Shown: positions 935 through 56,014 of the stretch, in pieces
How the letters are laid out: each line of letters begins with the position of its first letter
Position numbering within the stretch: position 1 is the stretch's first letter
Assembly: GCA_002787815.1 (NCBI GenBank)
Contig: PCUY01000072.1
Location: 30,973 to 94,972 of the forward strand
Source of the DNA: Bacteroidetes bacterium CG12_big_fil_rev_8_21_14_0_65_60_17
Lineage (GTDB): Bacteria > Bacteroidota > Rhodothermia > Rhodothermales > UBA10348
Length of the DNA stretch: 64,000 bases
Direction: 5' to 3'
Position numbers and translations under genes: made by a program
The notes under the pieces: generated by a model
The model's input: only the letters and a program-made list of their open reading frames with translations
What the model was told of the DNA's origin: nothing
The model's database searches: none

Positions 935-3805
935 TCACGGCCTGTTCTGGCTCCTTCTCAGCGAATCCTGCATGTCGTAGATCATTTTCAGGTCTTCCGG
1001 GGTCTGACGGATTGACGAGTCCCCGACGACATCGGCAATCATGTTCGTAAGCCGTGACGCCCCGTCAAAGTTGCCGGACAGCATGTAGGCCGCTCTGACC
1101 ATCTCGATAAGGCTTCCGAGACGCCGGAATTCCCTGTCTGTCATGGAGTCGGTCCGGGCCAACTGATGCATGATCAATGGCTCGGCTTTCTCGAAAATGG
1201 CATTTGCTTTTTCGTTCTCACCCAGATCACGATAAGCCTGCGCCATGAAGATGAAGGAGGTTTCATCGCCTGGAATGGTTTCGAACGGGACCTGCTCCAT
1301 GAACCAATCCAGCAGTTCCGCTCCACGCTGCTTTTCACCCATTTCGGCCAGTTGGGAGGCGGTATTGGAAAAGATGTTGCGGTAGTTGTCTACCATACGA
1401 CGGATGTTTTCGTCGAAGTACACGTCCGGATCATTCAGTCCCGTGAAGCGGAACTGTTTCAAGCGGGCATCGGTCAGTCCAGGCACGACACGTCCCATGG
1501 TTTCGTCATGCCTGATCGGTACAATGCGGTAAGCCTGACCCTCGAGCTGGAAGAAATCCTGAAGGTCGAGCTGTCCGCTGGGCGCAACGGTCACCGCGAA
1601 GTAGATGGGCCGTTTCCAGTTCTGCTGCGCATTGGTCATGATCATATTGAGAGCGACCTGATCTGCACCATAGAGCAGGTTTCTGTCCTGCGTATACGGT
1701 CTGCCCTCAAGACGCCATCGCATGGGTGACTCAAAACGGGACGTGTCTTCGAGCAGTCCGGGAATTCCGGCTTCCTCATAGGCCGTTGCCAGCGCCTCCC
1801 TGTTGACCGGGATTTCGAGTTCCCTCGGGGTCCACAAGTCGATTCGCAGGTCGTCGATAGCCTCTTCCGGGAGGGAAATGGGGAGCGGTTCCGACGTCCT
1901 GGAATACTGATTCTTCAATTGCCGGACATACCACGGCGTATTGAGCAGTGACAGATTCGCCACCCGGACATCCTGCCGTACACCTTCGACCTCCTGCATG
2001 TACCACAGAGGAAACGTGTCATTGTCACCGTTTGTGAGCAGAATGGCATTGTCATCCACACTCATCAGCATGTTGTACGCGTAATCTCCTGCGACGTACC
2101 GGCCACTCCTGTCGTGGTCGTCAAAGTTTTCCAGCATCATGAGCAAGGGTACCGCAGCGAACAGGATGGCCGAAGCTCCTACGGCAGCCGTTCTTACCCC
2201 CGGTTCGGAAAACCGGTCGGCGAGTGTATCGACCAGCATGCGGACAAGCCCTGTGGCCCCCAGTCCTATCCAGATGGAAAAGGCGAAGAAACTGGCCACG
2301 TATGAATAGTCCCGTTCCCGGGGTTGGAAGGGGGTCTGGTTCAGGTACAGGATAATCCCGATTCCCGTGACGAAGAACAATACACCCACGGCGAATGCCC
2401 TGCGCCAGTCACGCATGAAGTGAAAGGCCAGGCCGATCAACCCCAGCAGGAGGGGAAGCCCGTAGTAGGCGTTCCGACTGGCCCATTCACTTGGTGTCTG
2501 GTAAAAATAATCGGCGTCCTCCCTCTTGGAAAAACCGGTTATGGCCGGAGCATCCTGCGTGTCATTGGCGCGTCCCACGAAATTCCACAGGAAATACCGG
2601 ACATACATATGTCCGACCTGGTACTTCCAGAAAAACTCGGCATCTGACTTGTATTGGCGATACACCCGTACGTGATTCGGGTCCGGACTGTACCTGCGCG
2701 GAAAAAGGACCTCCTTGCGGGTATTGATGGTGCCCAATTGGTTGTCGTACGTATTCCCGGTCAGAATGGGCGTATTGCCATACTGTTCACGCTTGAGATA
2801 GGAGACAATGGCGCTGACGGTTTCCGGATCGTTTTCATCGATGGGTGGATCCGATGCACTGCGAATAAAAATCAGTGCATAACTGGAGTATCCTATGAGG
2901 ACCATGGTTACGCACAACATGATCAGGTTGGCTGCCTGATAGCCCCGGGCATGCGTGTACCATACCAGAAAAGCGATGGTGCCGATGAATGCCACCAACA
3001 TGAAGACAGGAGCGCCGCTCTCCCCGATGATACCAGGAAGAAGCTGCACGACACCGGGATACACCACGAGAAAGCCCGCAACGGCAACGGCACCCGTTGC
3101 CGCCAGTCCAAGGAAGCGCTGGAATGGCGTCCAATCCGGGTTTTCGAACTCGAAAAAGAATACGATCAGCGCGACAAAAAATATGGCAAGCAGATTGAGG
3201 AGATGCACACCGATTGCCAGTCCGAACAGATAGGCGATCAGAATCAGATATCTGTTTGTGGCCAGCCCGAAACGATGCTGGCCGCCAGTCAGGCGTTCCT
3301 CTTCAAGCGCTGCCTCTTCTCGCCATTTCATGACAAGCCACACGACCAGAGCCGTGAAGAGCATGGACATGGCATAGACTTCAGCCTCAACGGCGTTGAA
3401 CCAGAACGAATCCGTGACGGCGAACGTGGTGGCTCCAATCACGCCCCCTGCCAAGGCGGCAATGCGGTCCAGCGGGGACCACGTCTGCGGGGGACCTTGC
3501 CACTCGCGAACCAGACGTACAATGATGAGATGGAGAAGCACCACAGTCACGGCACTCGAAAGCACCGACACCATGTTCACGGACAGCGCAATGTAGGCCG
3601 TTGGCACGAACATGGAAAAAAGCCGGCCAACGAGCATGTAGAAGGGTGCGCCGGGAGGATGCGAGACCTGCAGCCGGTTCGCGATGGCAATGAACTCACC
3701 CGAATCCCAGAAGGAGGTGGCTGGAGCTACGGTCAGTACGTAGAGGACAAGCGCATACAGGAAGACAGCGGCTGCTGTGAGTCGGTCTGATCTGTTCCAG
3801 TCCAT
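935..3805 (-). CDS. DUF2723 / GT-C-like polytopic membrane glycosyltransferase-family protein
   Basis: I trimmed the 1009-aa ORF to the ATG at 3805 (MDWNRSDRLTAAAVFLY...). The N-terminal SFWDSGEFIAIANRLQVSHPPGAPFYMLVGRLF, the many TM helices and the soluble helical C-terminus are typical of DUF2723 proteins. Confidence 0.8.
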   Translation of the reverse strand: MDWNRSDRLTAAAVFLYALVLYVLTVAPATSFWDSGEFIAIANRLQVSHPPGAPFYMLVGRLFSMFVPTAYIALSVNMVSVLSSAVTVVLLHLIIVRLVREWQGPPQTWSPLDRIAALAGGVIGATTFAVTDSFWFNAVEAEVYAMSMLFTALVVWLVMKWREEAALEEERLTGGQHRFGLATNRYLILIAYLFGLAIGVHLLNLLAIFFVALIVFFFEFENPDWTPFQRFLGLAATGAVAVAGFLVVYPGVVQLLPGIIGESGAPVFMLVAFIGTIAFLVWYTHARGYQAANLIMLCVTMVLIGYSSYALIFIRSASDPPIDENDPETVSAIVSYLKREQYGNTPILTGNTYDNQLGTINTRKEVLFPRRYSPDPNHVRVYRQYKSDAEFFWKYQVGHMYVRYFLWNFVGRANDTQDAPAITGFSKREDADYFYQTPSEWASRNAYYGLPLLLGLIGLAFHFMRDWRRAFAVGVLFFVTGIGIILYLNQTPFQPRERDYSYVASFFAFSIWIGLGATGLVRMLVDTLADRFSEPGVRTAAVGASAILFAAVPLLMMLENFDDHDRSGRYVAGDYAYNMLMSVDDNAILLTNGDNDTFPLWYMQEVEGVRQDVRVANLSLLNTPWYVRQLKNQYSRTSEPLPISLPEEAIDDLRIDLWTPRELEIPVNREALATAYEEAGIPGLLEDTSRFESPMRWRLEGRPYTQDRNLLYGADQVALNMIMTNAQQNWKRPIYFAVTVAPSGQLDLQDFFQLEGQAYRIVPIRHDETMGRVVPGLTDARLKQFRFTGLNDPDVYFDENIRRMVDNYRNIFSNTASQLAEMGEKQRGAELLDWFMEQVPFETIPGDETSFIFMAQAYRDLGENEKANAIFEKAEPLIMHQLARTDSMTDREFRRLGSLIEMVRAAYMLSGNFDGASRLTNMIADVVGDSSIRQTPEDLKMIYDMQDSLRRSQNRP

Positions 3806-9789: not shown

Positions 9790-10476
9790 TCACGACACGC
9801 CTTCAAAGAAACGGAACCTGCGGTCATCGACGCGGATGGTCTCAACTTCAGGCTCGACGGGGTCACGGCCCGCGGCCCATTCCGGCACCGCGGCGTTGGT
9901 CATGGACCGCTCGCTGTAGAAATGGCGAGTCCGGGGTGAGAAGGGTCGGTGCCGAGAATCGGCATGGCGCACCATGTGGGCAATGTACAGTGCTGTATTC
10001 CATCCCGGTACACGATGCGCCGGTGTGAGACTCATGTAGTGCTCCCGTTTTGGCGATGTGGGGCTGAAAGCGCTGAACTGGAAAGGATCGAGCACGACGC
10101 TCTGATACGAGCGTTTGCCGCGGTATCCGGTTTCCACCCGATTCCTGATGACCCATGCTACGAGCGCCTGTTCTTCCGGGCGCTTGGTTTCCGAGTATAT
10201 GGCTCGTGCCAGCCAGAGTGTCTCGGAGTCGATATCTTCCGTGCGGAAGGTTTTGCGGTGTCGGGGATCCAACAGCGCCTCCTCCCACGGCTTCAGAGGA
10301 CTGGCTGCCCGGGAGTCCAGCAACAGGTGGGCCAGTTCCGGATTCAATGCGTACGACGTGGAGGAACGCAGATCGTGCTGATACACCATGAAACCTGTGA
10401 GACCCAGGATCAGGCACACCGATCCGAAAAGTCGCATTTTCATAGGTTTATCCAGATGATTACTGTAGTTGTACAT
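9790..10476 (-). CDS. SleB-family cell-wall hydrolase (Hydrolase_2-like)
   Basis: LWLARAIYSETKRPEEQALVAWVIRNRVETGYRGKRSYQSVVLDPFQFSAF matches the SleB/CwlJ-type catalytic domain. N-terminal signal/anchor (MKMRLFGSVCLILGLTGFMVY). Alternative starts at 10443 and 10437. Confidence 0.8.
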   Translation of the reverse strand: MYNYSNHLDKPMKMRLFGSVCLILGLTGFMVYQHDLRSSTSYALNPELAHLLLDSRAASPLKPWEEALLDPRHRKTFRTEDIDSETLWLARAIYSETKRPEEQALVAWVIRNRVETGYRGKRSYQSVVLDPFQFSAFSPTSPKREHYMSLTPAHRVPGWNTALYIAHMVRHADSRHRPFSPRTRHFYSERSMTNAAVPEWAAGRDPVEPEVETIRVDDRRFRFFEGVS

Positions 10477-10513
10477 TGGCCGCTCACTACGGCACGGTGA
10501 TAGTCCGGTTTCA

Positions 10514-10540
10514 TTATCGGTGGCTTTGCAAGAAACTGTA
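10514..10540 (-). promoter_or_regulatory. sigma-28 (FliA/SigD)-type promoter candidate upstream of the SleB-like hydrolase
   Basis: The minus strand reads TACAGTTT-N11-ACCGATAA against the consensus TAAAGTTT-N11-GCCGATAA (14/16, exact spacing). It ends 38 bp upstream of the ATG at 10476. Confidence 0.45.
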
Positions 10541-10684
10541 ACTATTGGGTTTACAGCTTTAAATTACGTATTCATGCCACCTTCAATACGCGTTCATCCG
10601 CAGTTCACTGCTCCTCAGTGGGGCCTTCACTGTACCTTGGCACCTGCTTGATATACACGTTCTCCACCGCTCACACCTACCCGA

Positions 10685-11824
10685 ATGAACATCCTGGTAG
10701 ATGACGCCATCCCTGCTGCCGCTCGCTGTTTCAGTCCATTCGGGCACGTGCGAAGCGTGCCGGGGCACCTGATTGGCCGTACTGAGGCAGCGTGGGCCGA
10801 TGCCCTTGTTGTACGCTCGGTGACACGCATTGACCGTCACCTGCTCGAGGATACCGACGTAATGTTCGTGGGGAGTGCGACGGCAGGCGTGGACCATGTG
10901 GATCAGGACTGGCTTCGCCAAGCCGGTATCTCGTTTGCGGCAGCCTCCGGTGCGAATGCGGCGGCCGTGTGCGACTACGTCCTCGCAGCCCTCGGTGTCG
11001 CCGTGGAACGGGGTGTTACCGGGAACTGGCCGGACACAGCGGTGGGAATTATCGGATACGGGAACGTGGGCTCAAAGCTCGCGCGGCGTCTGGAACAACT
11101 GGGTTGTCACGTACTGGTGAACGACCCGCCAAGAGCAGCGCGCGGTACGATGGACAGGGCATCTACGCCACTTTCCGATCTGCTCGGCCGGGCACAGGTA
11201 CTCTCGTTGCACACACCCTTGGTGGGCAGGGGCACGTGGTCCACGACAGGTCTCATTGATGCAAGACGACTGGCTGACCTCCCGGCACGAGCCGTGCTCA
11301 TCCAGACTTCACGGGGCGGGATACTTGACGACCAGGCGGCGGCACGTCTAAGAAGGCAGGGTGACCTGTCCTTCATGGCCATGGATGTCTGGGAGCACGA
11401 ACCCGTTCCCGACGTGGTCGTGATGGATAGCGCGGACCTGGTGACACCGCATATTGCCGGATACACGGCCAGTGCGAAGCGGCAGAGTGTGACAGCGATA
11501 GTAAAGGCGCTCGAAGTGTTTCTGGGACGTTCGCCGGGAGAATGGGACTCGCCACCTGAAAAGGTAAGCGTACTGCCCTCGCCACCACCCTGGCCGGGAC
11601 CGGGCCCGGCCTTTTCCTGGCTGACGCAACAGCTCTATGATATCCGGGAAGATGACAGATGGATGCGTCGTGCGATGACCGCCACGGATTCTGCTGCCGG
11701 GAAAGGGGACGTTTTCCATGGGCTGCGCAAGCGCTATGGCACGCGTCCGGGCTTTGACGCATACCGCCTGGAGACAAGCGATGCCCGTTGGAGGGCCCTC
11801 TTTGATGCGATTACACGCCCGTAA
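10685..11824 (+). CDS. pdxB: 4-phosphoerythronate dehydrogenase
   Basis: MNILVDDAIP... N-terminus, a D-2-hydroxyacid dehydrogenase NAD fold (GIIGYGNVGSKLARRL), and the PdxB-specific C-terminal extension. Confidence 0.8.
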   Translation: MNILVDDAIPAAARCFSPFGHVRSVPGHLIGRTEAAWADALVVRSVTRIDRHLLEDTDVMFVGSATAGVDHVDQDWLRQAGISFAAASGANAAAVCDYVLAALGVAVERGVTGNWPDTAVGIIGYGNVGSKLARRLEQLGCHVLVNDPPRAARGTMDRASTPLSDLLGRAQVLSLHTPLVGRGTWSTTGLIDARRLADLPARAVLIQTSRGGILDDQAAARLRRQGDLSFMAMDVWEHEPVPDVVVMDSADLVTPHIAGYTASAKRQSVTAIVKALEVFLGRSPGEWDSPPEKVSVLPSPPPWPGPGPAFSWLTQQLYDIREDDRWMRRAMTATDSAAGKGDVFHGLRKRYGTRPGFDAYRLETSDARWRALFDAITRP

Positions 11825-49092: not shown

Positions 49093-49854
49093 TCAAGCGG
49101 CTCGGTTCGACATGACCGACAACTGGTAGCGGAGCGTTTTGAGAACCTTTGCGAGAATCTGGCTGATTCTGGCCTCTGTCCGGTCCATGAGTTCGGCTAT
49201 TTCCCGAAGAGTCAGATTTTCGAAGTAGTAGAGAGCGAGTATGGTTTGCTCGCGGTCCGGGAGTTCGTTGATCAGCGTTTGGATGTATGCTTTCAGGCTC
49301 TCCCGGTCAATGGCCTCGAAGGCAAGCAGCGTGTCATTGTTCGGTATCGACTCGATCATGGTGTGATCGTCTTCCCCGTTCACCGGAGAATGCAGTGACA
49401 GGGAAAAGCGGCACTGTGCATCTTTGAGCAGTGTGTGGTAGTCGTAGAGTGACATGTCCAGGTACTCGGCCACGGCCTGGTCAGTGGGCTCTTCCCCAAG
49501 TTCCTGACGCAGCGTGTCCATGGCCTGGTGCGCCTCGGCAAGCAGGCGGCGGCGCTCCCGGGGGAGGGCATCGATGGAACGCAGGTAGTCCACCAGGGCA
49601 CCACGGATCCGGCCGTAGGCATAGGATACGAAGGGCGTACCCCGATCAGGATCGAATCCTTCAAGCGCCTGCAGCAGGCCAAGCTGACCCACGCTTTCCA
49701 GATCTTCACGCGATGCCAACGGGTGATCCGGAATGTTCAGTCGCCCAACAATGGAGCGGATGAGGGGGACAGCGGCCGTGACAACGGCTGTACGGTTCAC
49801 ATCGGAAGGGTTCGCTGCGAACGCGACGGCTACGGTTTGAAGATCCTGCGACAT
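49093..49854 (-). CDS. fliA: FliA/WhiG (sigma-28)-family RNA polymerase sigma factor
   Basis: Region 2 (REDLESVGQLGLLQALEGFDPDRGTPFVSYAYGRIRGALVDYLRSIDALPRERRR), region 3, and the region 4 HTH (LTLREIAELMDRTEARISQILAKVL); 253 aa. Confidence 0.78.
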   Translation of the reverse strand: MSQDLQTVAVAFAANPSDVNRTAVVTAAVPLIRSIVGRLNIPDHPLASREDLESVGQLGLLQALEGFDPDRGTPFVSYAYGRIRGALVDYLRSIDALPRERRRLLAEAHQAMDTLRQELGEEPTDQAVAEYLDMSLYDYHTLLKDAQCRFSLSLHSPVNGEDDHTMIESIPNNDTLLAFEAIDRESLKAYIQTLINELPDREQTILALYYFENLTLREIAELMDRTEARISQILAKVLKTLRYQLSVMSNRAA

Positions 49855-49880
49855 GGCGAAAAGGGGTTGAGGGGTTGGTG

Positions 49881-50165
49881 TCAGGCCGCTTTCTGGGCAT
49901 CCGGAATCCGGACGTCCCCACGCGAGTCAGCTTCCACATACGGGGCATCCTCGGTCATGCGGGCAGATGGTTCCATGTCATCCATGAGGCGATGAACGGC
50001 AAAATCACCGAGTAACAGCATGGCCCAGGTGGTACATCCGGCAGAACCGGCCCACAGGAGGGAGGGTGCCAGTCCGGAACCAGCCTGCAACAGGTTGGTG
50101 GCGGTCAGTGCGGCGACCAGCAAGCTGAACTGTATGATGAGGCTTCGCATGGGATATGGAATCAT
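49881..50165 (-). CDS. small two-TM membrane protein with acidic tail (function unknown)
   Basis: I shortened the ORF-track ORF (to 50237) because a sigma-54 promoter lies inside its 5' end. In-frame ATGs lie at 50165 and 50150. The gene ends 26 bp upstream of the sigma factor gene. Confidence 0.5.
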   Translation of the reverse strand: MIPYPMRSLIIQFSLLVAALTATNLLQAGSGLAPSLLWAGSAGCTTWAMLLLGDFAVHRLMDDMEPSARMTEDAPYVEADSRGDVRIPDAQKAA

Positions 50166-50182
50166 GGTTCGACTCCATGTCA

Positions 50183-50198
50183 TGCAAAGCGTGTGCCA
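50183..50198 (-). promoter_or_regulatory. sigma-54 (-24/-12) promoter
   Basis: The minus strand reads TGGCAC-ACGCT-TTGCA, matching every specified base of the TGGCAC-N5-TTGCW consensus with exact spacing. It points at the small membrane protein and fliA-type genes. Confidence 0.7.
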
Positions 50199-50309
50199 GC
50201 GGTCAACACCCGTGCGCCCTGCAACGCTGAAAACCACCTCTTAGAGGCCTTAAGGGCATAAAAGACCCCTGTATTCCTGTAGTGAGTGGCAGGTCAGTCC
50301 ACGCGGGAA

Positions 50310-50360
50310 CGGAAAAATATTCCGTGATCCGGGCTTGTGTCGAGCGGAAGATATTTCCGC
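50310..50360. promoter_or_regulatory. two dyad-symmetric candidate enhancer (UAS) sites for the sigma-54 activator
   Basis: cGGAAaaataTTCCg (50310-50324) and gCGGAAgatatTTCCGc (50344-50360). Both are 5-N5-5 dyads with centres 35 bp apart, about 120 and 155 bp upstream of the -24 element. Confidence 0.5.
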
Positions 50361-50370
50361 AGGCCACCGG

Positions 50371-51771
50371 TCACGTCAGATACCCTTCCTCGCGATATTT
50401 CTTCAGTTTGTTGCGAATGGTACGGGCACTGATACCCAGTTTGTCGGCTGCCTTCTGCTGATTGTTTCCACTTTCCTCGAGTGCCTCGAGAATCATGTGT
50501 CGCTCCATGTCCTCGATGGTATCATGATGGGAGGCGCCGTCCGACTGGCCAGACCGGGACGACCCGGCGTCGGAGAAGAAACTGTCGTACACGTCCGGGA
50601 CGTCGACGAGGGGACGGTCGGCCGAGAGGAGCACACCCCGCTGGATCATGTTTTCCAGTTCCCGCACATTCCCGGGCCAATCCTGCTCCAGCAGACGCTG
50701 CATCAGGGCATCTGAAATGTCTTTTGACGGCAGTCCGTAGAGACGGCAGTATTTCTGTGCGAAATGCCGTGTCAGAAGCGGCACGTCATCCATCCGCTCT
50801 GAAAGTGGGGGAACGGTAAGTGGAAAAACAGCCAAGCGGTGATACAGGTCTTCGCGGAACAACCCCTCAGCAATGGTCTGCGAGAGGTTGCGGTTGCTCG
50901 TTGCAACCACGCGGACATCCACCTTTTTTACTTCCGCTGAACCGATTTTCTGGACCTCCTGCTCCTGGAGCACCCGCAGCAACTTTGCCTGGATGGGAAG
51001 ATCGATCTCGGTGATTTCGTCGAGCAGCAGCGTCCCTCCGTCGGCGCGTTCAAATGCACCCGTCATGTCTTCCACGGCGCCGGTGAAGGCACCCTTGCGG
51101 TGGCCGAACAAGTGGCTTTCCACCAGATCGCGGGGGAGGTTCGCACAGTTCAGCGCCAGATATGGCCCGCTCGCACGATCACTCTCATTGTGTATCAGCC
51201 GGGCGAGAATCTCTTTACCGGTTCCGCTTGCCCCCTGGATGAACACGGGAGCGCGGTTTCTGGCTACACGCGGCAGCATGTCTTTCAACCTGCGAATGGG
51301 CCCGGACTGGCCCACGTACATGTCATCCACCGAACCCTGTGCCGCACTGCCCGGGCCGCGTTGTGTGCGGCTCTTTCCTGCAGCAGCGGTTTCTTCCGGA
51401 AGTGGCGTGTCGAGGGATTTCTGGACGCGCTCCACCAGTTCGGCGGCGGTAAATGGTTTCGGGATATAGTCAATGGCGCCATGCTGCATCATCCGTACGG
51501 CGTGCTGTACGTTGGCGTGTGCCGTGACCATGATCACGCGTGTCGTCGGGTAATGCTCACGGATGTGACTGAGCAATGAAAACCCGTCCATGTCGGGCAT
51601 CATGAAGTCGGTGACGACAATGTCAAACGACTCTCCAGCCAGGATATCGATGGCCTGGACAGCGCTGGAAGAGCATGTCACGTCAAAGCCGTGACGGGAG
51701 AACAGGCGCTCGAACAGGTTGTGGAGTAGATGTTCGTCATCGACGAACAGGAGCCGGGGGGTGTGTGACAT
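50371..51771 (-). CDS. sigma-54-dependent response regulator (NtrC/FleR-type enhancer-binding protein)
   Basis: REC domain (LLFVDDE...VVTDFMMPDMDG), an AAA+ domain with Walker A GASGTGKE and the GAFTGA loop, and a C-terminal Fis-type HTH (QQKAADKLGISARTIRNKLKK). Confidence 0.92.
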   Translation of the reverse strand: MSHTPRLLFVDDEHLLHNLFERLFSRHGFDVTCSSSAVQAIDILAGESFDIVVTDFMMPDMDGFSLLSHIREHYPTTRVIMVTAHANVQHAVRMMQHGAIDYIPKPFTAAELVERVQKSLDTPLPEETAAAGKSRTQRGPGSAAQGSVDDMYVGQSGPIRRLKDMLPRVARNRAPVFIQGASGTGKEILARLIHNESDRASGPYLALNCANLPRDLVESHLFGHRKGAFTGAVEDMTGAFERADGGTLLLDEITEIDLPIQAKLLRVLQEQEVQKIGSAEVKKVDVRVVATSNRNLSQTIAEGLFREDLYHRLAVFPLTVPPLSERMDDVPLLTRHFAQKYCRLYGLPSKDISDALMQRLLEQDWPGNVRELENMIQRGVLLSADRPLVDVPDVYDSFFSDAGSSRSGQSDGASHHDTIEDMERHMILEALEESGNNQQKAADKLGISARTIRNKLKKYREEGYLT

Positions 51772-51851
51772 GGAGGGAATATTGCGTCATCGATACGCAA
51801 ATATACCTCAAATTCCCAGCAAGTTTCAGATTCTCCCGCGTTGGGAAGTTG

Positions 51852-52592
51852 TCAGTCTGTCGGCGGCAGGGTAAGCACGAAGACCGTTCCGTTTTCGGGA
51901 GAACTCCCCTCAAGGACGAGCGTGCCTTTGTGCAAACGGGCAATCTGCTCGGCAAGTGGCAAACCCACACCCAGATTCCAGGCCTTCGTCGTGTGGAATG
52001 GCTGAAAGATGAGGTCCGGTGAGGTTTTGTGGCTGAGCGTACCCTCGTTGTGCACCTGTATGTGAATGGGGGGATTCGCGCCTGGTGCCGGGTTTCCCCG
52101 CGACAGGGTTATGGTTACGGGTGTTTTCTCGTGGTGTGTGGCCTCCAACGCATTCGTCACAAGGGCCATGACCGCCTGGCGCAGGGCTTTCGGGTCCGCC
52201 ATGACCCGCTGTCCCACGGGCAGGTTCATGTCAAAGCGTACGCGACGGGCATCCGTATCCGGAAGAATGCGTTCCAGGTGACGAACAACGTCGGTCAGCA
52301 CGACCGATCGCAGAACGACGTTGGGGTTCGCATGGTACAGGTCCAGGTCCTCCAACACGGATTCAATACGCCGGACACTCTCCAGGATCCTGATGCCGGA
52401 CTCCCTGTCCTCGGTTTTCGAAAGCGACGTCATGAGAAGCTCCGTATAGCCTTCTATACCACTCACAAGACTGCCTATCCGGTGGCGGAGTACCTGGGCA
52501 AACTCCCTGAATGGGGCCTCCTGTGCGGGTTGTTCGGCACCGCGCCTGACGGCCGGCCTGTTCCGGGCTATATTTCTGGATGTTTTTGACAT
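51852..52592 (-). CDS. soluble histidine kinase lacking any sensor or TM domain
   Basis: H-box FAQVLRHRIGSLVSGIEGYTELL, N-box LVTNALEA, and G/F boxes (HNEG, FQPFHTTK, GVGLPLA). Only 246 aa, so HisKA + HATPase alone. Confidence 0.8.
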   Translation of the reverse strand: MSKTSRNIARNRPAVRRGAEQPAQEAPFREFAQVLRHRIGSLVSGIEGYTELLMTSLSKTEDRESGIRILESVRRIESVLEDLDLYHANPNVVLRSVVLTDVVRHLERILPDTDARRVRFDMNLPVGQRVMADPKALRQAVMALVTNALEATHHEKTPVTITLSRGNPAPGANPPIHIQVHNEGTLSHKTSPDLIFQPFHTTKAWNLGVGLPLAEQIARLHKGTLVLEGSSPENGTVFVLTLPPTD

Positions 52593-52618
52593 GGAGGCTG
52601 TTGGCAGTGTTGTTGGTC

Positions 52619-53491
52619 TTACGACACCCGCTGTGTTGTAATGGAATCAAAGGAAGGAAGTGGGGCATGCAGCAGTTCGGCAGCAACGGTATCGACCGTC
52701 CGCATGAGTTCATCGCCGAGCAGAGGTCGCGCCGCTTCTGCAGACTCCATGTCCCTGGACCCGGAAGTTGTCGCCGCATAACCTGCTTCGATTACCAGAT
52801 TGGATGCGACGCTCACGAGCAGCTGCAGGAAAGGGGTAATGGTTGACGGATGGGCGACAGGATGCCCGCCAAGCGACATCACGTCGACGACGTAAGAAGG
52901 AAGGGCGAAGCGCAATCCTGCAAATGCACCGGTTTCGGAAGCATCGAACCCGAACAGAAGTTGTTGCGGGGTTCTCCAGTCGTGCGAATCGAAGAGAATG
53001 GTCTGAGGGGAAGAATCGGCCATAGCCGCGAACTGCGATGGGAAGGACTGGGCCAGCACAAGTGTTCCATAGTGGAAGAGCAGCCCTGCACTGAACGCTG
53101 TACCGGGCGGCGAGTCGGCTGCGTCCGGCCAGGTGCCTTTCGCCAATCGATGCGCAACGCGGGCGGTAGCATAGGCTTCGTTCCTGATGGCGTGAACCAC
53201 CTCCGCCTCTCTGACATGTGTCCGCGTGGACACGATCATGCGTGCCACACTCGCGGGCTCAAGGACTTCGATGGCCTGCGTAAGGCTGCCCACTGTGTTT
53301 CGTAGTCCGTAGTAGGAATTGTTGGCCCGCTTGAGCAGACCTGCCGCCGTAAAAAGATCGCGGGAAACAACCCCTGCCAGGGCACCGGCCCGGAGGGGAA
53401 GCCCGGTCTCGATCATATTCCTTACGCGCTCGGCAACAGACTCGACAGGTGGTCGCAGCAGGGTGAGGCCGGTAAAAAGTGTAGGTTCCAT
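52619..53491 (-). CDS. HDOD-domain protein
   Basis: AAGLLKRANNSYYGLRNTVGSLTQAIEVLEPASVARMIV and downstream HD-related helices resemble HDOD signalling modules. Confidence 0.7.
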   Translation of the reverse strand: MEPTLFTGLTLLRPPVESVAERVRNMIETGLPLRAGALAGVVSRDLFTAAGLLKRANNSYYGLRNTVGSLTQAIEVLEPASVARMIVSTRTHVREAEVVHAIRNEAYATARVAHRLAKGTWPDAADSPPGTAFSAGLLFHYGTLVLAQSFPSQFAAMADSSPQTILFDSHDWRTPQQLLFGFDASETGAFAGLRFALPSYVVDVMSLGGHPVAHPSTITPFLQLLVSVASNLVIEAGYAATTSGSRDMESAEAARPLLGDELMRTVDTVAAELLHAPLPSFDSITTQRVS

Positions 53492-53502
53492 GGTAGCGGA
53501 CC

Positions 53503-54345
53503 TCAGGCAGCAAGTCTGAGGGCGCCACTGCCTGACAGTCGGCGGGCCTCATCAATGCGTCCCTGTTTGATGTTCAGTGCCACAAGACGTCGACGCAGAA
53601 GCTGGCTCTCGGATCGAGTTTCGTAGAATGCCGTGTAGAGCGTGAGTGCTTCTTCCTGCCACCCCTGTTGGGCAATGGCCTGAATGACCTTGTCGGCCTC
53701 GGTCTCTTCAAGGTTCCGGATCATGATAGATGCGACGGCCGTGGCATCGCCCGGGTTATTGCGGTACAGGGCAAGCCTGAAACAATCCTCGCGCAGGGGA
53801 GCAGGCATGGTCTCAATCCCCTCCGGGTATGCACTTTCAAGGTGATCAGCTACATCATCCCATTTTCCGAGTTGCCAGGACCAGGCGGCCAGAAGCGTGT
53901 GCGTCTCGGTCGTTGAGAGCACGGTATCCCAGGTTGTCTTCGTGTCGCCGACGGCCAGGTTGGACATGTGCAGATAGGCCGCCAGATAGTCTTTGCGACC
54001 GGCAAGCACATTGACCTGGATCATGTGCGATGCCAACTGGTTCGGGAACAGGTCCAATGAACGGCCTGCCATGCGACGGGCAGGTTCCGTAGCGCCCAGT
54101 CGTCTCTGGGCTTCGGCCAGTGCCATTTCCATGGCGGCCCGTTCCTCCGGGTGGAATATCCGGGGCTGATCCATGGCTTGGCGCGCCTCGGCCGAGGCGG
54201 CCTCCCAGTTGCCATTTCGCATATGGTTCCAGATGGGAACGAGCGACGAGTAGGGGAGGTCGTCGCAGTCGAACGAGAGTTCGGGTACGCGGTAGCCGCT
54301 CAGAAAAGATTCTTCGCGGGGCTGGAGTGTGAGTTTGCGCATCAT
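53503..54345 (-). CDS. helical-repeat (TPR-like) hypothetical protein, first gene of the regulatory operon
   Basis: Repeated helical hairpins (GNWEAASAEARQAM, GKWDDVADHLESAY, GWQEEALTLYTAFYE, QGRIDEARRL). I trimmed the start to the ATG at 54345 because a terminator and a sigma-54 promoter occupy the ORF-track 5' extension. Confidence 0.5.
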   Translation of the reverse strand: MMRKLTLQPREESFLSGYRVPELSFDCDDLPYSSLVPIWNHMRNGNWEAASAEARQAMDQPRIFHPEERAAMEMALAEAQRRLGATEPARRMAGRSLDLFPNQLASHMIQVNVLAGRKDYLAAYLHMSNLAVGDTKTTWDTVLSTTETHTLLAAWSWQLGKWDDVADHLESAYPEGIETMPAPLREDCFRLALYRNNPGDATAVASIMIRNLEETEADKVIQAIAQQGWQEEALTLYTAFYETRSESQLLRRRLVALNIKQGRIDEARRLSGSGALRLAA

Positions 54346-54403
54346 GACGGTTCGGAATTTTGTGCTGTCCGGGTGTCCCGGTGTTCTTGTCTTCCCGTCG
54401 ATA

Positions 54404-54419
54404 TGCAAAGGGCCTGCCA
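54404..54419 (-). promoter_or_regulatory. sigma-54 (-24/-12) promoter upstream of the regulatory operon
   Basis: The minus strand reads TGGCAG-GCCCT-TTGCA (one mismatch to TGGCAC-N5-TTGCA, exact spacing), 59 bp upstream of the proposed ATG at 54345. Confidence 0.6.
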
Positions 54420-54539
54420 ACGATGAAATACGCTCTGGCGTCCCGAAAACCGTATGACGAATCGTGAACAGGCGGTAATCCTTTCCTGAAGGAGCGCAAA
54501 TATTTCCCATGTCGCGTTGCGAACAGCCCTGTTACAGAG

Positions 54540-55247: not shown

Positions 55248-55345
55248 ATCTTGCCTCTGCTTTGGGCGGCGGGTTGGTTACCGTCGCGAGAGTGTATACG
55301 AAAACATTCAGTCAATCAATATACGGCGCACGCACGAGCCGTTCA

Positions 55346-56014
55346 ATGCGTATGGATATGGAAGAATTGAGAATTCAGGGGACAGATCACGTGCTGCGCC
55401 CCGGAAAACTCGTGTGCGTGGGGCGCAATTACCTGGCCCATGCGCGTGAAATGAAGAGCGATGCCCCGACCGAACCCATGCTCTTCCTGAAACCGGCGAG
55501 CAGTCTGACGGGTTTCGGCGGTCAGATTCTGCTGCCGCCGCAATCGGATGACGTGCATCATGAAGTTGAACTGGTTGTCGTCGTTGGACGCCGGTTGTGC
55601 CGGGCAACACCGGACGAAGCGATCGATGCGGTTGCGGGGCTTGCTGTGGGACTCGACCTTACGGCACGTGATATTCAACAGAGGGCCAAGGAGCGGGGGC
55701 ATCCATGGAGTGTATCGAAAGGCTTCGACACGTTTGCTCCCCTGGGGACCGTTGTGGAAGCCGATCCGGAGCAGCCCCGTCGCATCTCCCTGAAAGTCAA
55801 TGGTACCATAAGACAGAAGGCTTCCACAGCAGACATGCTTTTCCCGGTTGCTGACCTCCTGGTGTATGCGTCCGGCATTTTTACGCTCCATCCCGGGGAT
55901 CTGCTTTTCACGGGGACACCCGAGGGGGTGGGACCGGTGCGCGAAGGCGATCTGCTCGAGGCGGAGATCGAGGGACTTCCGATTCTTGAGATCAGTGCCG
56001 ACCGTAGGCGCTGA
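55346..56014 (+). CDS. fumarylacetoacetate hydrolase (FAH)-family protein
   Basis: GKLVCVGRNYLAHAREM, HHEVELVVVVG, and the C-terminal GDLLFTGTPEGVGPV. I trimmed the 306-aa ORF to the ATG at 55346, because its 5' part runs antisense through rplU. Confidence 0.85.
   Translation: MRMDMEELRIQGTDHVLRPGKLVCVGRNYLAHAREMKSDAPTEPMLFLKPASSLTGFGGQILLPPQSDDVHHEVELVVVVGRRLCRATPDEAIDAVAGLAVGLDLTARDIQQRAKERGHPWSVSKGFDTFAPLGTVVEADPEQPRRISLKVNGTIRQKASTADMLFPVADLLVYASGIFTLHPGDLLFTGTPEGVGPVREGDLLEAEIEGLPILEISADRRR

Follow-up and report, generated by a model that had tools for sequence, protein, structure and literature searches.

FliA (sigma-28) promoters have been described in several bacteria. In Escherichia coli, they read TAAAGTTT-N11-GCCGATAA; the class III fliC promoter of Pseudomonas aeruginosa combines TCTAAAG with GCCGATAA, and the sigma-D promoters of Bacillus subtilis read TAAA-N15-GCCGATAT. 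The sigma-D regulon of B. subtilis includes the peptidoglycan hydrolase (autolysin) genes lytC, lytD, and lytF. Here, we analyze a stretch of 64,000 nucleotides (nt) from Bacteroidetes bacterium CG12_big_fil_rev_8_21_14_0_65_60_17, of the order Rhodothermales (contig PCUY01000072.1, positions 30,973 to 94,972; “the window,” within which all positions are counted unless another locus is named). On its minus strand, a sigma-28-like motif at 10540-10514 precedes a gene for a membrane-anchored protein with a peptidoglycan hydrolase fold, a candidate target of the same type as the B. subtilis autolysins. The motif shares the box spacing and the -10 core CCGATAA of the E. coli promoters. In contrast to FliA class III promoters, its -35 box departs from the TTAA[GA] of its own order, it is confined to one small clade, and no flagellar genes are seen nearby.

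In the FlrBC hierarchy of Vibrio, the FleSR hierarchy of Pseudomonas, and the FlgSR hierarchy of Campylobacter, a kinase acts with a sigma-54 activator and fliA stands below a sigma-54 promoter. The window carries the same set of regulators, and a flagellated relative has a sigma-54 promoter for its flgB operon, as in hierarchies of this type; unlike those systems, the window lineage lacks the structural genes that would separate the regulators, which lie side by side. Sigma-28 factors that are used without flagella are known from Chlamydia (hctB) and from Streptomyces (WhiG). Likewise, the window encodes a highly conserved factor of the sigma-28 family in a setting without flagellar genes, as far as the window itself extends, although, in contrast to WhiG, no RsiG-like partner was identified there.

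The sigma-28-like motif and the promoters of its lineage

The minus strand at 10540-10514 reads TACAGTTT-CTTGCAAAGCC-ACCGATAA, with the -35 box at 10540-10533 and the -10 box at 10521-10514. The initial annotation had counted 14 of 16 positions identical to TAAAGTTT-N11-GCCGATAA with exact spacing, and this count is correct, the consensus being that of enterobacteria and hence of another phylum. In the register of the promoters of its own lineage, the same motif is TTACA(10541)-N15-ACCGATAA. It is the sole site in the window with no more than three mismatches to the enterobacterial consensus; the runner-up sites have four mismatches and lie in coding DNA. Given the base composition, chance alone would place ~0.013 sites with at least 14 of 16 matches in the window; the corresponding figures are ~0.003 for the 3.9 kb of intergenic DNA that it contains and ~0.8 for a genome of 4 Mb. 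The region is AT rich, as had also been noted, with a GC content of 0.445 to 0.47 against 0.58 to 0.63 (~0.6) in the flanks.

The motif is correctly oriented for the hydrolase gene. The distance to the start codon, given at first as 38 bp, needed correction: an alignment of 26 homologs places the start at ATG 10443, which is M12 (MKMRLF...) of the longest open reading frame (ORF), beginning at 10476, so that 70 nt, rather than 37, separate the end of the -10 box from the ATG. If the site is used by sigma-28, transcription is predicted to start at G10506 (minus strand), 8 nt past the last A of the -10 box, if positions are counted as in the open complex of P. aeruginosa fliC (PMC12784957); the implied 5′ untranslated region would be 63 nt long.

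Both boxes match the E. coli consensus at 7 of 8 positions (TACAGTTT to TAAAGTTT and ACCGATAA to GCCGATAA). A sigma-28 site is expected to keep the core CGA and one or both bases of the extended -10 GC pair; the -10 box here has the core and the C of the pair, with A in place of the first G. A single change in this pair has been reported to be tolerated (PMC12784957). The flagellin promoter of a related locus (L147) reads TCCGATAA, with T at the position of the G-to-A change in the hydrolase site.

To place the motif within its own lineage, we compared it with seven flagellar sigma-28 promoters from two flagellated Rhodothermales loci, L146 (8835-8861 on the plus strand; 14335-14308, 16910-16883, and 17873-17847 on the minus strand) and L147 (14432, 16102, and 19759 on the minus strand). 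The genes downstream of them are flagellin genes, fliS, a kinase gene, and one unknown gene; each site lies in intergenic DNA and points in the right direction. Together they read TTAA[GA]-N14/15-[GT][CA]CGA[TA]A[AC], with the consensus TTAA[GA]-N14/15-GCCGATA[AC], and their -35 box is one position off the enterobacterial TAAAG. One of the seven lies ahead of the kinase/activator operon, which suggests feedback by FliA. On a lineage matrix built from these sites, with leave-one-out scoring for the sites themselves, the motif has the top intergenic score in the window. A higher match at 11075 (minus strand, 16 bits), which is the best in the window and lies within pdxB, was discarded because it is not conserved among relatives.

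By the standard of the order, then, the motif joins an excellent -10 box to an off-consensus -35 box. The description of the promoter as “strong” rested on the enterobacterial consensus, and it is not justified by the lineage matrix, on which the motif scores 12.5 bits against 17 to 21 bits for the seven flagellar promoters (17.4 to 20.3 bits under leave-one-out scoring). The DNA-reading helices of FliA (YGRIRGALVDYLRSIDALPRERRR and TEARISQIL) are identical in the window and in the flagellated relative Rhodocaloribacter litoris; therefore, the -35 preference of the lineage should hold in the window organism as well.

Promoter turnover among relatives

We aligned the motif region of the window with those of its three closest relatives, which form one clade with it (L002, L086, and L001), and of three intermediate loci (L085, L144, and L145). 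Three of the four clade members hold the motif: the window (TACAGTTT..ACCGATAA), L002 (TACAGTTT..TCCGATAT; hydrolase identity, 82%), and L086 (TACAGTTT..TCCGATAC; 81%). Among these three, none of the 14 core positions varies, compared with 6 of the 13 other positions (p=0.006). In L001 (87%), the region reads TACAATTA-N11-GTCAATAT, and the motif has been lost. It is not recognizable in L085 (67%), L144 (64%), or L145 (58%). Conservation upstream of orthologs thus holds for L002 and L086 and fails for L001, for the three intermediates, and, at that position, for all distant loci. Searching metagenome contigs for the clade-specific 17-mer CCGTAGTGAGCGGCCAA gave 54 loci, each of them a chance match within unrelated DNA, and so brought no further clade members.

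The intermediates show what occupied this region outside the clade. Both L085 and L145 have a canonical sigma-54 promoter, TGGCA[CT]-AAAGG-TTGCT, ~95 nt upstream of the position of the motif; the contig of L144 stops short of it. At the corresponding place, the window has the decayed remnant GGTGCC-AAGG-TACA (10625..10645, minus strand), and the element is degenerate in all four clade members. Among the distant loci, GGCA[CT]-N5-TTGC occurs in ~20 of 80. In the majority of the distant orthologs, a promoter of the sigma-54 type lies ~250 to 320 nt upstream of the hydrolase start and 36 nt before the first strong repeat of the TGAA array described below; L003, L005, L006, L012, L014, L016, L019, L020, and L148, together with L085 and L145, provide examples of this promoter type. 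The sigma-28-like boxes arose in the very clade in which the sigma-54 promoter decayed, and this coincidence is the main argument for a replacement role. The lineage matrix also gave 6 of 75 sense-strand upstream regions of orthologs with at least 12 bits (L038, 19.0; L068, 15.9; L042, 15.7), compared with 0 of 75 on the antisense strand and 0 of 140 in coding controls, which hints that the hydrolase gene has been linked to FliA repeatedly across the family.

Our preferred reading, held tentatively and a little short of an even call, is that the motif is a functional FliA promoter, specific to the clade and of moderate strength, that took the place of the ancestral sigma-54 promoter. In the arrangement of most Rhodothermales, a sigma-54-type promoter is followed by four TGAA repeats spaced 11 nt apart and by a hairpin-containing leader. 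This promoter has decayed in the clade of the window, where a few base changes and the loss of 2 nt, ~95 nt farther downstream, gave rise to a -10 box that is almost perfect (CCGATAA) and to an incomplete -35 box. FliA, made from a conserved sigma-54 promoter with enhancer sites beside a flagellar-type kinase/activator pair, would form the holoenzyme that starts transcription of the membrane-anchored hydrolase near G10506. Since FliA is itself expressed from a sigma-54 promoter, the hydrolase would stay in the same sigma-54 to sigma-28 hierarchy, one step lower.

The initial annotation had likewise proposed sigma-28 control of the hydrolase as plausible. The presence of a cognate FliA, the position of the site, and its invariance agree with that assignment; the off-consensus -35 box, the loss in L001, and an overlapping sigma-70-like site do not, and they head a series of observations that weigh against our reading. 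All seven flagellar promoters have TTAA[GA] at -35, and three more candidates from genomes with a nonflagellar context have TTAA[GTA]. The hydrolase site has either TTACA (N12 register), which matches TTAAG at 3 of 5 positions and TTAAA at 4 of 5, or TACAG (N11 register), with 3 of 5 matches. Its score is not comparable to those of the flagellar promoters, and it ranks fourth in the window, with three nonconserved coding sites scoring at least as high; by our own estimate, ~0.2 chance matches of this quality are expected in the intergenic DNA of the window. The GTTT portion of the match is not conserved among the Rhodothermales flagellar promoters, so that its agreement with E. coli carries no weight for this order. 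Although L001 is the closest relative, it lacks the motif while its FliA appears to be kept, since a FliA of the same cluster was found on a contig with the length of that of L001 (78,890 bp); for the latter reason, we rejected the idea that L001 dropped the motif after losing FliA. No motif was found at this position in orthologs with less than 81% identity. No flagellar structural genes were found among the scanned ORFs, which cover most of the window, and the window has none at the places where relatives carry flagellar clusters. Finally, part of the conservation of the -35 box could have another cause, namely, the 3′ arm of an inverted repeat, CTGTAA-N9-TTACAG (10536..10556, minus strand), which overlaps the -35 boxes and reads TGTAAC/GTTACA in close relatives.

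The overlapping site mentioned above, GTTACA-N18-GATAAT (10513..10542, minus strand), is the sole promoter-like element common to all four clade members, and it raises the alternative that the working promoter is of the sigma-70 type and that its AT-rich -10 region reads CCGATAAT only incidentally. We consider this unlikely. The site was found by a promoter scan, and GTTACA with an nATAnn -10 box occurs in all four members, including L001, which is without the sigma-28 core. Moreover, the housekeeping promoters of this order look E. coli-like rather than Bacteroidetes-like (TTTG/TAnnTTTG) in sequence: the local rplU-rpmA promoter (55318-55346, minus strand) reads TTGAAC-N17-TATATT and has equivalents in L084, L088, and L089. 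Yet the match is weak (9 of 12 positions) and lacks the TTG of the -35 box, its 18-nt spacer compares with 16 to 17 nt in the rplU promoters, and chance alone often yields such sites (0.4 per 1.1 kb). L002 has GATATG, without the critical final T, and a sigma-70 promoter would leave the invariance of CCGATA and GTTT in three genomes unexplained.

The conserved leader

The motif is embedded in a leader made of several conserved blocks: a TGAA array, a segment of 62 to 65 nt, a [TC]GAAAC block, and a hairpin. The array (NTGAAN repeats, 10569..10630, minus strand) has the T of its TGAA units at 10629, 10607, 10596, 10585, and 10574. The last four repeats lie exactly 11 nt apart (GTGAAC-N5-GTGAAG-N5-TTGAAC-N5-GTGAAT), and the fifth copy of the window lies 22 nt upstream. 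The array occurs once in the window and is kept in ~38 orthologous loci (for example, L016 2740-2780), where the spacers vary and the phase is invariant; it stands directly downstream of the sigma-54 promoter wherever one is present. By its sequence, it looks like a putative set of tandem direct-repeat binding sites. A hexamer with a 5-nt spacer is, by analogy, the geometry of the direct-repeat sites of winged-helix response regulators; the predicted binding protein is of the OmpR/PhoB type.

Directly downstream of the -10 box and 62 to 65 nt past the last repeat lies the TGAAAC block (10508..10513, minus strand), whose GAAAC is invariant across the family and whose first base is T or C. It is followed by the hairpin GCCGU-AGUGA-GCGGC (10479..10493, minus strand). 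A hairpin is kept at this place family-wide, with compensatory changes (CTCAC/GTGAG, CTCTC/GAGAG, and CTCAAC/GTTGAG). It is frequently followed by TTTG, and its pairing register shifts between subclades.

These blocks also support a different account, in which there is no promoter at the motif. The region would be a transcribed or protein-bound leader, expressed from further upstream, either from a residual GG-N10-GC element at ~10632-10619 or from near the pdxB boundary, and the conservation would reflect the inverted repeat, the TGAAAC block, and the hairpin. The 240-nt region is colinear with the 300- to 490-nt leaders of distant orthologs, whose starting point is a sigma-54 promoter ahead of the TGAA array. 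The window clade has kept this array as well as the TGAAAC block and the hairpin. The 6-bp inverted repeat, whose 3′ arm shares bases with the -35 box, is present in all four members, and three of the four keep the GG-N10-GC arrangement as AAGGTAC-N5-AGGC. Against this, the canonical sigma-54 elements (TGGCAC and TTGC) are gone in all four. RNAalifold predicted no pairs, and hence no consensus structure, on a 28-sequence MAFFT alignment of the leader. When sequences were folded singly, most loci showed a hairpin after TGAAAC, but the folds of the upstream segment differ among subclades. Rfam searches returned no credible family match, either over the whole window at gathering thresholds or over 10300-10800 at permissive E values. 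On balance, a leader without a promoter at the motif seems rather doubtful to us. Because the hairpin register and the upstream folds change among subclades, we did not call the leader a defined RNA motif.

We also considered whether [TC]GAAAC is a general sigma-28 -10 box. This was rejected, since the core C is replaced by T in most loci and the TTA block sits 2 to 3 nt too close. In two loci, L038 (2688-2715, plus strand) and L148 (~2851-2877, plus strand), the GAAAC block is extended to GCCGAAAC and is accompanied by TTAAG or TTATT at the distance expected for sigma-28, with scores of 19.0 and 11.3 bits, respectively. In those genomes, the block may double as a sigma-28 -10 box.

FliA, its regulators, and the hydrolase

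The sigma factor encoded at 49093..49854 (minus strand; 253 residues) is FliA. The initial annotation had assigned it to the FliA/WhiG family, and it scores 197 bits on TIGR02479, above the cutoff of 189.6 bits. Conservation covers the residues corresponding to D81, R84, and R91 of E. coli and the helix of region 4.2, and R. litoris has an identical sequence in regions 2.4/3.0 and 4.2. D81 and R84 reportedly read the -10 core. According to PMC12784957 (which numbers the residue R97 and cites Koo et al. 2009), the equivalent of E. coli R91 reads the extended -10 GC pair. The ortholog in R. litoris (75% identity) follows fliM-N-O-P-Q-R-flhB-flhA-flhF-flhG and the same small ORF that precedes the gene in the window, which identifies the ortholog of the window sigma factor as flagellar FliA. 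For the window sigma factor, the best match in the PDB is 6pfv, labeled “RNA polymerase sigma factor,” which we take to be WhiG; the WhiG chain 7lq4 matched more weakly.

The small ORF (49881..50150, minus strand; 89 residues, two predicted membrane helices) lies ahead of fliA in the same operon. It is kept before fliA with or without local flagellar genes, has 111 residues in R. litoris, and has no family match; it is a candidate partner or anti-sigma factor of FliA. The operon is preceded by the sigma-54 promoter TGGCAC-acgct-TTGCA (50183..50198, minus strand), with a GG-N10-GC core, and by two enhancer-like palindromes, CGGAA-N5/6-TTCCG (50360-50344 and 50325-50309, minus strand), 110 to 160 nt upstream of it. 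Palindromes, promoter, small ORF, and fliA are all four conserved in L084, L088, and L089. Adjoining the operon is the gene for a sigma-54 activator of the response regulator type (50371-51771), followed upstream by genes for a histidine kinase (51852-52592) and an HDOD protein (52619-53491), all on the minus strand. The core, the enhancers, and the activator gene expected of a sigma-54-dependent promoter are thus in place, and the sigma-54 to sigma-28 cascade envisaged in the initial annotation is borne out to this extent.

The palindrome of the fliA operon was not found near the hydrolase sigma-54 promoters; therefore, the same activator is not implicated there. CGGAA-N5-TTCC-like sequences occur also in the flagellar loci L146 and L147. 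Between the palindromes and the sigma-54 promoter of fliA, antisense sigma-28-type sites that point into the activator gene were seen in L084 (9596-9569), L089 (9431 and 9531), and L088 (~9470), all on the minus strand; in the window, TTAAG is present there and a -10 box is not.

The genomic context of these regulators differs between flagellated genomes and the lineage of the window. In two flagellated Rhodothermaceae genomes, the ortholog of the activator (67% identity) lies between flgBC-fliE-F-G-H-I-J and fliT-fliD-fliS with two flagellins, and in one of the two, the HDOD and TPR genes lie beyond. The window and many marine relatives have the order L21-L27-TPR-HDOD-kinase-activator-small ORF-fliA-ppiD, with no structural gene between. 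At the level of gene order, this suggests that the structural genes were lost and the regulators retained. The retained cascade would run from the HDOD protein and the FlrBC-like kinase/activator pair through the sigma-54 promoter to the small membrane protein and FliA. A wider scenario, in which the flagellar regulatory cascade was kept after the loss of the flanking structural clusters and rewired to envelope genes, with the hydrolase as one target that switched from sigma-54 to sigma-28 and with the TGAA array as the binding site of a regulator, strikes us as somewhat unlikely. As to the extent of the cluster, the TPR, HDOD, kinase, activator, and FliA genes are contiguous at 49093-54510, compared with L082, L146, and L147, where two flagellar clusters come between these genes or enclose them. 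The contiguous pattern is found in abundant marine lineages, and L088 is recorded in 72 blocks of the assembly collection.

The hydrolase gene (9790..10443, minus strand) encodes 217 residues, in which a SleB-fold (Hydrolase_2-like) domain follows an N-terminal membrane helix. The public (NCBI) annotation starts it at M30 (10387-10476 region), giving a protein of 199 residues from which the membrane helix has been removed. The earlier description of the product as a SleB-like peptidoglycan hydrolase stands with regard to its fold, although Pfam Hydrolase_2 reaches 23.2 bits, below the gathering threshold of 27. Many homologs carry a precomputed match to PF07486, and a sequence profile of the family found no match among PDB chains. 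The AlphaFold 2 model is confident (predicted local distance difference test, >90) over residues 80 to 228, and its single meaningful PDB match is 4FET, the SleB catalytic domain (probability 1.0; template modeling score, 0.68 on the target). E96 of the IYSE motif, a candidate for the catalytic glutamate expected in the N-terminal helix motif of SleB enzymes, is invariant in 26 homologs. The protein is therefore SleB-like at the level of the predicted fold. It shares the motif LARxIYSE...VxxNRV...QFSAF with the SleB/CwlJ spore cortex enzymes (4FET) but differs from them in having an N-terminal membrane anchor rather than a peptidoglycan-binding domain and in belonging to a nonsporulating Gram-negative host.

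Flagellar rod insertion, which the initial annotation had cited as a rationale, is not supported as the role of the hydrolase. In most of 80 Rhodothermales loci, the gene lies between pdxB (divergent) and a gene for an outer membrane protein (OMP) β-barrel (convergent), and this pdxB-hydrolase-OMP synteny is kept whether or not a genome has flagellar genes beside its regulators. None of the recovered loci has the hydrolase within a flagellar cluster, where a dedicated flagellar peptidoglycan hydrolase would be expected, and the regulators here stand without structural genes. Like the FlgJ muramidase domain, Rhodobacter SltF, Caulobacter PleA, and Borrelia BB0259, the window protein is, by its fold, probably peptidoglycan cleaving, and it may be under flagellar sigma factors; in contrast to them, it has a SleB/Hydrolase_2 fold and is encoded outside a flagellar cluster.

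If the site does not work, the case cautions against scoring promoters by the consensus of another phylum. More interesting as leads are the retained sigma-54/FliA cascade and the promoter turnover before the hydrolase gene. Many marine Rhodothermales keep a very conserved FliA (66 to 96% identity) and the sigma-54 activator with no flagellar genes at the usual sites, which is a puzzle. If our reading is true, the hydrolase would be the first candidate for a nonflagellar FliA output in Rhodothermales, its promoter would have turned over from sigma-54 to sigma-28 while keeping the gene in one regulatory hierarchy, and the site would offer a concrete handle on why these bacteria retain FliA.

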